Shown: one piece after another, positions 11,954 through 12,544 of the stretch | How positions within the stretch are numbered: the stretch's first letter is position 1 | Layout of the letters: each line of letters opens with the position of its first letter | UHGV virus genome: UHGV-0176192 | Reading direction: 5' to 3' (one strand) | DNA from: a virus | Length of the DNA: 30,447 nucleotides | Notes under the pieces: model-generated | The model's database searches: none | What the model was told of the DNA's origin: nothing | What the model saw: the letters and a program-made list of their open reading frames with translations, nothing else | Made by a program: the position numbers and the translations under genes

Positions 11954-12349
11954 CAGGCATTACAGCAGCCCTTCACTCTAAGGGGTTGCTGTAATGTGAG
12001 AAATAAAAAACCGGTCACAGGGAGCAGCTACACAGAAGCGGCCGGCGAAGACCGCCAATACCACCCATGCATTGATGCAACATACTAATGACAATAGCCG
12101 CTATTGATGTAAATGCAATGTTATGCATCGACGAAAATAAAAAACCGGCAGGGGAAATCCATTGAAGATTTGCCGGTGGCAAAAGAGGGCCATGTTTTTA
12201 ACCTTAGTCGCAGAGTTACGGAGTGCAACTACGAATGCTGCCGGTATATGGCTGAATAGCGTTTCAATGATGTACGTCATCTTATCTGTAAATGTTAATG
12301 ATAAATGCTCTCATTTGTGCGGGTCCTTCCGGTGGGGTGGCCTGCCACG

Positions 12350-12361
12350 GGGCGGGAGCGG
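12350..12361 (+). other. candidate cosN cohesive-end site (GGGCGGGAGCGG), with cosQ-like and cosB-like flanks
   Basis: The stretch gcgggtccttccggtg...acg GGGCGGGAGCGG cgcgg...ttttgaattttc parallels lambda cos as I recall it (gcgggtcctttccggtg...acg GGGCGGCGACCT cgcgg...tttatgaaaattttcc). It lies 195 bp upstream of the small-terminase start, mirroring the lambda cosN-to-Nu1 spacing. Confidence 0.5.
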
Positions 12362-12544
12362 CGCGGAAAACGGCTAGTTTTTGAATTTTCATGGGACACC
12401 ACCACATCAATTAACATGTTGAAAAGTAAAATAAAAATTGATTTTCACCTGTCCAATTTTGCTTTTTGTGGGACATCTGACCAGTTTTTAATATTCTGTT
12501 TTTAAAAAGAAAAATGATATTCGAGCTGGTGTGAAGAGGTGGGG

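Follow-up and report, generated by a model that had tools for sequence, protein, structure and literature searches.

A predicted lambda-like cos site upstream of a DUF1441 small terminase gene in a lambdoid prophage

The locus described here raises the question of where the virion DNA of a lambdoid prophage would begin and end, and in which direction it would be packaged. A sequence-only reading of the window (the whole stretch of DNA that was analysed, 30,447 nucleotides) had placed a candidate cos site of the order cosQ-cosN-cosB upstream of the small terminase gene, and had proposed a 12-nt cohesive end on the basis of a likeness to the cos region of phage lambda. From the comparisons presented below we conclude that positions 12321-12535 are very probably a cos site, that of a lambdoid prophage whose structural type is shared with cdtI, mEp460 and Gifsy. 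The site sets the predicted ends of the virion genome (left end at 12350) and the predicted packaging direction for the prophage, and can be used for annotation, for re-circularising or re-opening the genome, and for predicting the neighbouring host DNA that cannot be co-packaged.

The predicted cos core and its likeness to lambda

The string quoted in the sequence-only reading was found to be exact. Positions 12318-12394 consist of tgcgggtccttccggtggggtggcctgccacg, GGGCGGGAGCGG and cgcggaaaacggctagtttttgaattttcatgg in succession; written out by position, TGCGGGTCCTTCCGGTGGGGTGGCCTGCCACG occupies 12318-12349 and is followed by GGGCGGGAGCGG at 12350-12361 and then by CGCGGAAAACGGCTAGTTTTTGAATTTTCATGG. 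The lambda cos string that had been quoted for comparison agrees with the ends of the lambda record NC_001416, which finishes in ...ACGGGTCCTTTCCGGTGATCCGACAGGTTACG and starts with GGGCGGCGACCTCGCGGGTTTTCGCTATTTATGAAAATTTTCCGG. The G+C content is 68% over 12311-12379 and 33% over 12380-12544. Coordinates of the individual elements and of the adjoining terminase genes are given in Table 1.

Table 1. Elements of the predicted cos region and the adjoining terminase genes, with positions in the window.
Feature	Position	Strand	Remarks
cosQ-like heptamer GGGTCCT	12321-12327	+	All seven bases as in lambda cosQ, at lambda bp 48473-48479; predicted top-strand nick 22 nt downstream
cosN, CG/GGGCGGGAGCGG/CG, predicted large-terminase nicking site	12348-12363	+	Conserved CG dinucleotides flank both nick positions
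Predicted 12-nt 5' cohesive end GGGCGGGAGCGG	12350-12361	+	Virion left end would be 12350; top-strand right end would be 12349
Spacer CGCGGAAAACGGCTAGTTTTTGAATTTTCAT	12362-12392	+	Positional counterpart of the lambda I2 segment, between cosN and cosB
R3-like predicted small-terminase binding site	12390-12405	+	Core GGACA at 12394, +45 from the predicted end
I1-like putative IHF site	12409-12424	-	TTTCAACATGTTA (12412-12424) matches WATCAANNNNTTR with 1 mismatch
R2-like site, inverted	12444-12458	-	Core TGTCC at 12450 (GGACA on the minus strand); TGTCC conserved in the alignment
R1-like site	12467-12482	+	Core GGACA at 12471; with its flank, repeats the R3+I1 unit
Second TAAY-N4-TG element TAATATTCTG	12489-12498	+	Its distance from R1 equals that of I1 from R3
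Conserved block AGCTGGTGTG	12524-12535	+	Lies shortly before the ribosome-binding site
terS, small terminase, 166 aa	12545-13045	+	Pfam DUF1441; phrog_141 'terminase small subunit'
terL, large terminase, 699 aa	13045-15144	+	gpA ATPase and gpA nuclease domains; 24% identical to lambda gpA

When lambda cos was searched against the window by default blastn (2/-3, word 7, E<=10) the site was not reported. A scan was also carried out in which lambda -35 to +45 was aligned locally (+1/-1) to 1518 overlapping 120-nt tiles covering both strands. Here the site ranked first with a score of 22, compared with 15 for the best unrelated tile (mean 8.2, sd 1.6) and a maximum of 18 in 2000 shuffles, and 51 of the 75 alignment columns were identical. 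The claimed likeness was borne out by the scan but missed by the default search; the direct resemblance is patchy, and the case rests on the sensitive alignment together with the family of related cos sites.

The identities with lambda fall at places which are important in lambda genetics, namely the cosQ heptamer (7/7), the CG bases next to each predicted nick and the first six bases of the cohesive end. Base pair 10 of the cohesive end is also shared (GGGCGGGAGCGG compared with GGGCGGCGACCT in lambda), whereas bp 7, 8, 9, 11 and 12 differ, all of these lying in the right half. Feiss and colleagues reported that the right half of the lambda cohesive end tolerates both natural and engineered changes, and lambda-like ends with right-half variation have been described, including that of Gifsy-1, which differs from lambda at bp 8, 9 and 11 (PMC4669245). 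Over the whole of cosN 11 of the 16 bp are identical to lambda, and twofold symmetry is seen at 8/16 positions as compared with 10/16 in lambda. The GGGTCCT heptamer occurs only once in the 30-kb window.

The 12-bp spacing of the predicted nicks and the order and orientation of all sub-sites are the same as in lambda, as is the placement of the site some 190 bp upstream of terS and a gpA-family terL, while the overall spacings differ by 1-5 bp. The distance from cosQ to the nick is 22 nt rather than 23 nt, and that from 12350 to the terS ATG at 12545 is 195 bp rather than 190 bp, so that the match to the lambda cosN-to-terS spacing noted in the sequence-only reading is close without being identical. 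The spacer downstream of cosN aligns to lambda bp 13-43 and forms a 31-bp block, CGCGGAAAACGGCTAGTTTT.G.ATTTTCAT, which is nearly invariant across loci with differing cosB and TerS types. In lambda the I2 segment is required for termination (PMC4669245).

Related loci and record ends

Related loci were collected with TerS as the probe and comprised 17 loci from genomes and 80 from IMG/VR, the TerS relatives being 53-98% identical. The junction CCACG/GGGCGG was found 195±3 bp upstream of the terS ATG in approximately 90 related loci, nearly all of those fetched, and the spacing between the conserved CG flanks was exactly 12 in the window and in most relatives, as it is in lambda. The cosQ position was also kept, being occupied by either GGGTCCT or GGTACTC. 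As an annotation rule for relatives, CCACG/GGGCGG may be sought about 195 bp upstream of the DUF1441 gene.

The ends of several sequence records coincide with this junction. Two phage records, cdtI (AB285204) and the linear Tritos (OV696610), open with GGGCGGGAGCGT at the base homologous to 12350 and close with ...CTGCCACG. The final 31 bases of cdtI match positions 12319-12349 exactly, the origin of that record being either measured or chosen by analogy. The metagenome viral contig IMGVR_UViG_3300038809_000004 starts exactly at the GGGCGG of the homologous site, which is the outcome expected when a linear cos genome is assembled. A scan of IMG/VR with the conserved spacer for further contigs ending at cos gave only this one contig among the 80 loci listed, and because most of these contigs are prophages from isolate genomes the scan is weak evidence either way. 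In mEp460 the same cohesive end as in the window, GGGCGGGAGCGG, is found 190 bp before the end of the record. Searching the literature for GGGCGGGAGCG, the cohesive-end string, yielded unrelated papers only. At the level of sequence comparison, the cosQ-cosN-cosB reading with a predicted 12-nt end at 12350-12361 is thus supported, as the earlier reading had proposed.

We considered whether the lambda likeness might be due to chance, the AT-rich stretch being simply the promoter or leader of terS and packaging being headful or from another site. The failure of default blastn to report a lambda match would fit this, as would two weak sigma-70-like matches at 12411-12455, but those matches are not above shuffled sequence (2 compared with a mean of 1.4), and when 11900-12700 was scanned for promoters and terminators nothing rose above background, nor did any Rfam family match. 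The TerL is of the gpA (5'-cos) family and not of the headful type. We regard this explanation as extremely improbable, and indeed excluded by the conservation at fixed spacing in about 90 loci and by the records which start at the predicted base.

A cos site whose cut positions or overhang length depart from the lambda-based prediction, for example with an overhang of 9-14 nt or nicks shifted by 1-2 bases, is a more serious alternative. With a TerL only 24% identical to gpA the cutting geometry could differ from that of lambda, and the cosQ-to-nick distance is 22 nt and not 23. Among relatives, phage Cr-LKS3, whose TerS (DUF1441) is 39% identical to that of the window, has measured 5' cohesive ends of 9 nt with the same flanking bases as in the window (PMC9303873), and in Gifsy-2 there are 14 nt between the conserved CCACG and CGCGG flanks. 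For two other DUF1441 phages, LLS and mEp213, a 12-nt 5' end, GGGCGGCGCGCT, has been inferred, and Nanopore reads of LLS did not cross the cos site (PMC12315714). We consider a shifted cut to be very unlikely for the window, given the CG-flank spacing of exactly 12 and the three independent records or contigs that start at the predicted first base.

The structural genes at 13138-25000 are approximately 90% identical to those of the E. coli phages mEp460, Ayreon, cdtI, phi458, Tritos and HannyBb. In cdtI, Tritos, HannyBb, mEp460 and phi458 the cosQ-cosN-spacer core is nearly identical to that of the window, while the cosB and TerS alleles differ and the homology breaks near 12405; TerS of the cdtI type is 57% identical to that of the window, and TerS of the mEp460 type 37%.

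These comparisons also bear on whether the site, though a genuine cos, belongs to a defective or cryptic prophage, where it would be a relic that is never cut or one used only with a terminase supplied by a helper. In E. coli strain Ch1, which carries the closest relative of the cosB-terS allele in that species, terL is frameshifted and the gene after it is interrupted by a stop codon. Of 5426 complete E. coli genomes, just one has the allele at a query coverage of 80% or more, and the window shows part of the prophage and not the whole. In the window, however, terS, terL, the W-like gene, the portal gene and the next protease/capsid ORF are all open and full length, every cos sub-site is intact and fits the family consensus, and mEp460, Ayreon and phi458, to which its structural genes are so similar, are isolated plaque-forming phages. 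On balance a defective prophage appears unlikely.

The predicted cosB and its co-variation with the small terminase

The AT-rich stretch 12380-12540 had been proposed as cosB with IHF and terminase binding sites. An arrangement of this kind is seen in the sequence, although the first repeat begins near 12390 and not at 12380: the layout is that of a complex cosB, R3(+)-I1-R2(-)-R1(+), with R2 inverted and an IHF-like match between R3 and R2. A repeat finder identified the R3/R1 direct repeat as TTTTCATGGGACA and TTTTTGTGGGACA, 77 bp apart, and when the units were extended to 42 nt, 22 of 42 positions were identical (shuffles, mean 11.2, max 21 in 5000). Three GGACA/TGTCC cores were present in 155 nt, compared with 0.19 expected from the frequency of the cores across the window.

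The positions of these cores are fixed within the class to which the window belongs, R3 lying at -152±2, R2 at -96±2 and R1 at -75±2 from the ATG, each in 16 of 17 distinct sequences. When 11 diverged members of the class were aligned, invariant islands stood out in an otherwise free intergenic region. In order, these were GGGACACCACCA (at the R3-like site), TAAC....TG, TGTCC, GGACA, the second TAA....TG and AGCTGGTG. The I1-like element carries the same TAAC-N4-TG signature as lambda I1 and, as in lambda, is located between R3 and the inverted R2. In the lambda I1 region TAACTTAATG is found at +74, with an IHF consensus match (one mismatch) at 79-91 that shares its strand with the match in the window, and the window counterpart of TAACTTAATG is TAACATGTTG at +63. 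The R sites themselves are different, with GGACA cores in the window and CGTTTCC in lambda, and the window repeats share a core of 5-7 bp only, far less than the 16-bp R sites of lambda. Core positions for R3/R2(-)/R1 are +45/+101/+122 in the window and +53/+114/+155 in lambda.

The second TAAY-N4-TG element is conserved in the window's class and partly in others, and is possibly a second bending site. A fourth R site was sought at 12524-12535, where the block was found to be conserved in the window but to carry no GGACA core; within it AGCTGGTG is invariant in the window's class. The block corresponds in position to a fourth R core, of inverted orientation, that is found in the Providencia/Morganella class, where TGACA is present at -18 from the ATG in 43 of 43 sequences, and a clear fourth core was seen in that class only.

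The start of the small terminase at ATG 12545, as given in the sequence-only reading, was confirmed by comparison; the ORF listing opens at GTG 12539, and all homologues begin MSNIS.. at the ATG. That reading had also remarked that TerS does not look like Nu1. By sequence this is correct, the only Pfam match being DUF1441 and not the Nu1 family, but by fold it is probably not. An hhalign comparison of TerS with Nu1 gave a probability of 25% and an E value of 7.5e-4 over 35 columns, and the sole aligned stretch was the Nu1 helix-turn-helix, residues 4-39. An AlphaFold model of TerS built with 44 homologues (pLDDT 84) contained helices at 15-21 and 26-35 and a two-strand wing at 42-51. The best Foldseek matches to this model were MerR-type DNA-binding domains (RacA, BldC, MerR regulators, GlnR/TnrA) and a viral packaging-motor domain, with weak E values of 0.04-0.3 and an rmsd of about 2-3 A over about 48 residues; lambda Nu1 was not among the listed matches. 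A profile search of TerS against PDB sequences gave nothing significant, the best being a MarR regulator with an E value of 0.064. The model leads us to predict that the N-terminus of TerS is a MerR-type winged helix-turn-helix. The DNA-binding domain of gpNu1 is described as MerR-like.

The terL gene is adjacent to terS and co-oriented with it, and its product matches Pfam PF05876 and PF20454 with E values of 1e-75 to 1e-85. Two other modes of packaging were considered and set aside. Headful (pac) packaging does not fit a TerL of the gpA family rather than the P22/Sf6/T4 type, nor a site with the architecture of cos, and for a cos of the HK97 type (3' overhang, HNH-assisted) we found a gpA-type TerL and no HNH gene adjoining terS/terL.

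When the R cores were compared across relatives they were found to change together with TerS. In Providencia, Morganella, Rahnella and other relatives TGTCA/TGACA was present at -150, -94 and -74 in 38-41 of 43 distinct sequences; GGACA was absent from the Providencia/Morganella class and there was almost no TGTCA in the window's class. The first residues of the predicted recognition helix partitioned perfectly with the R3 sequence into five classes, which are phylogenetically non-independent: DRK with GGACACCACC, NRG with CTGTCAGCAG, NRS with CG(G/A)CAGCAG, DR(A/S) with CATCATCAG, and HRD with GGCGGCAGC or GGCGGCAAC. This is the pattern predicted for a TerS-cosB recognition pair, and it is consistent with Gifsy-1, for which cosB is described as R3-I1-R2-R1 (PMC9026076). 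The comparison supplies a natural set of matched TerS-helix/R-site variants for the study of packaging specificity.

The same co-variation bears on the suggestion that the site is the cos of a phage-inducible chromosomal island or another satellite that uses a helper terminase. Gram-negative islands of this kind do carry a lambda-like cosN with a different cosB (PMC9026076), but R cores which co-vary with the adjacent TerS are what would be expected of a phage's own cosB, and none of the island hallmarks (integrase, alpA, rpp) was seen next to the site. A satellite origin has a negligible probability in our view and is excluded by the location of the site, which has a phage lysis cassette directly on one side and a complete terS-terL-portal-capsid-tail operon directly on the other.

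For specialists, some features of the family are of modest interest: the spacing fixed at 195 bp, the joint variation of R core and recognition helix, the GGTACTC variant found where cosQ would lie, and an 85-bp core flanked by mosaic joints. As a tentative reading, which we put forward as somewhat less probable than an even chance, phages with a DUF1441 TerS may share a lambda-like cosQ-cosN-spacer core, though TerL is about 24% identical to gpA, combined with a modular cosB. At least five packaging specificities may then have come about as a 5-bp R core, repeated at three or four fixed positions, changed in concert with the first residues of the TerS recognition helix. Under the same tentative reading cosB would consist of two tandem R(+) - TAAY-N4-TG - R(-) units, and the 85-bp core between the mosaic joints would act as a homology patch for reassortment of lysis and packaging modules.

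Proposed packaging and comparison with known cos sites

By homology with lambda, a course of events at this site can be proposed in which the nick positions, the polarity and length of the overhang, the binding of IHF and TerS and the role of cosQ are all taken by analogy. During lytic growth, dimers of the DUF1441 TerS would bind R3, R2 and R1 of cosB through the predicted N-terminal winged helix-turn-helix, helped by bending of the DNA at the IHF-like site that separates R3 from R2. This binding would place two copies of the gpA-family TerL on cosN, and there nicks would be made at 12349/12350 in the top strand and at 12361/12362 in the bottom strand, giving virion DNA with 12-nt 5' cohesive ends of GGGCGGGAGCGG. 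Packaging would run rightward from the predicted end, across the 195 bp to the terS start and into terS, terL and the head genes, and would be terminated at the next cos, a step for which cosQ, cosN and the conserved spacer would be needed.

The Salmonella prophages Gifsy-1, Fels-1 and Gifsy-2 resemble the window in having a DUF1441 TerS and a gpA-family TerL, and lambda-like cohesive ends are attributed to them in the survey of Vahanian et al. 2017 (Virology 509:140), as that survey is cited in PMC12315714 and PMC9303873. In Fels-1 the order is CCACG, GGGCGGCAGCGG and CGCGG, followed by R3(+)/R2(-)/R1(+) repeats with the core CATCATC around a TAAC-N4-TG element. The three prophages differ from the window in the sequence of the R sites, in the TerS recognition helix and in having GGTACTC at the cosQ position. 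Lambda itself differs in its small terminase, which is Nu1 where the window has a DUF1441 protein. The predicted site described here belongs to the lambda-like cos sites, defined by 12-nt 5' cohesive ends related to those of lambda (PMC4669245). Its sub-type is the one in which the small terminase is a DUF1441 protein and the head genes are those of Gifsy / cdtI / mEp460. It leaves the known picture of packaging in cos phages unchanged and is an ordinary example of a well-known kind.

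Mosaic structure and sequence variants of the cos region

The 85-bp core composed of cosQ, cosN and the spacer (window 12320-12405) was observed to have mosaic joints on both of its flanks. Many E. coli genomes contain the left arm (11400-12405) at 97% identity; the right arm, which comprises cosB and the small terminase gene terS, had a 93.6% match in only one of 5426 complete E. coli genomes. Phages of the mEp460 type have only the 85-bp core in common with the window around cos, and this core may be a patch for recombination.

The cosQ sequence GGGTCCT, which is that of both lambda and the window, was replaced by AGGTACTCC in relatives L017, L020, L023, L025 and many other loci. 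This variant, which lies approximately 28 bp upstream of the nick, was also observed at the cosQ position of Fels-1 and Gifsy-2. Natural variation of cosQ has been described as "not apparent" (PMC4669245).

Variation was also observed at the cohesive end. The Gifsy-2 site contains 14 nt between the conserved flanks as compared to 12, and lacks GGGCGG, indicating either a decayed cos or a cohesive end which differs in length. The linear record of mEp460_4F5 (LR595868) opens 5 nt before the predicted nick and, when compared with mEp460, is missing 3 nt within the cohesive-end sequence; these differences resemble an artefact of assembly at the physical ends.

The terS start region

A repeat search revealed a perfect 10-nt inverted repeat, TGATATTCGA (12515-12524) and TCGAATATCA (12548-12557), whose arms lie on either side of the terS ribosome-binding site and its ATG. 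It was present in E. coli strain Ch1 and was absent from Pantoea-type relatives. This repeat may serve to hide the terS start site in the mRNA.

The block AGCTGGTGTG (12524-12535) was invariant in the window's class and did not contain the GGACA core. In the Providencia/Morganella class a clear inverted R core (the 5-bp core of the predicted small-terminase sites), TGACA, was found at this position (43 of 43 sequences), and a further R core overlaps the start codon region. The block may represent a fourth site for TerS, or one with a role in autoregulation.

Other genes of the window

The two open reading frames matching the PADLOC candidate defence pair PDC-M53 run leftward within the rightward late-regulatory region, with RusA on one side and a DNA methylase on the other; a Pfam search gave no match for either. 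Two tRNA genes are located directly upstream of the lysis cassette. Pfam, PHROG and PADLOC searches with the 695-residue reading frame downstream of the tail genes each returned no match.

Positions of the features (window coordinates unless an accession is given)
Feature	Position	Strand	Detail
RusA	5282-5653		
PDC-M53B match	6001-6576	-	E 2e-54
PDC-M53A match	6584-7612	-	E 3e-31
N6/N4 DNA methylase	8222-9268		
tRNA-Thr	9437-9512		tgt
tRNA-Gly	9516-9590		tcc
Lysis cassette	10152-11189		two holin-family ORFs, endolysin
Phage_holin_8 ORF	10152-10544		lysis cassette
Phage_holin_3_7 ORF	10480-10809		lysis cassette
M15 peptidase endolysin	10806-11189		lysis cassette
ORF, 695 aa	28072-30159	-	
Gifsy-2 cos	NC_010393, about 18000-18180		CCACG GGTGGCTTCGGGCT CGCGG

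Comparison with lambda

The large terminase of the window (13045-15144) has only 24% identity to lambda gpA, while 51 of 75 columns were identical when the cos site was compared with that of lambda. At the sequence level, the cos site is more conserved, relative to lambda, than the large terminase expected to cut it.
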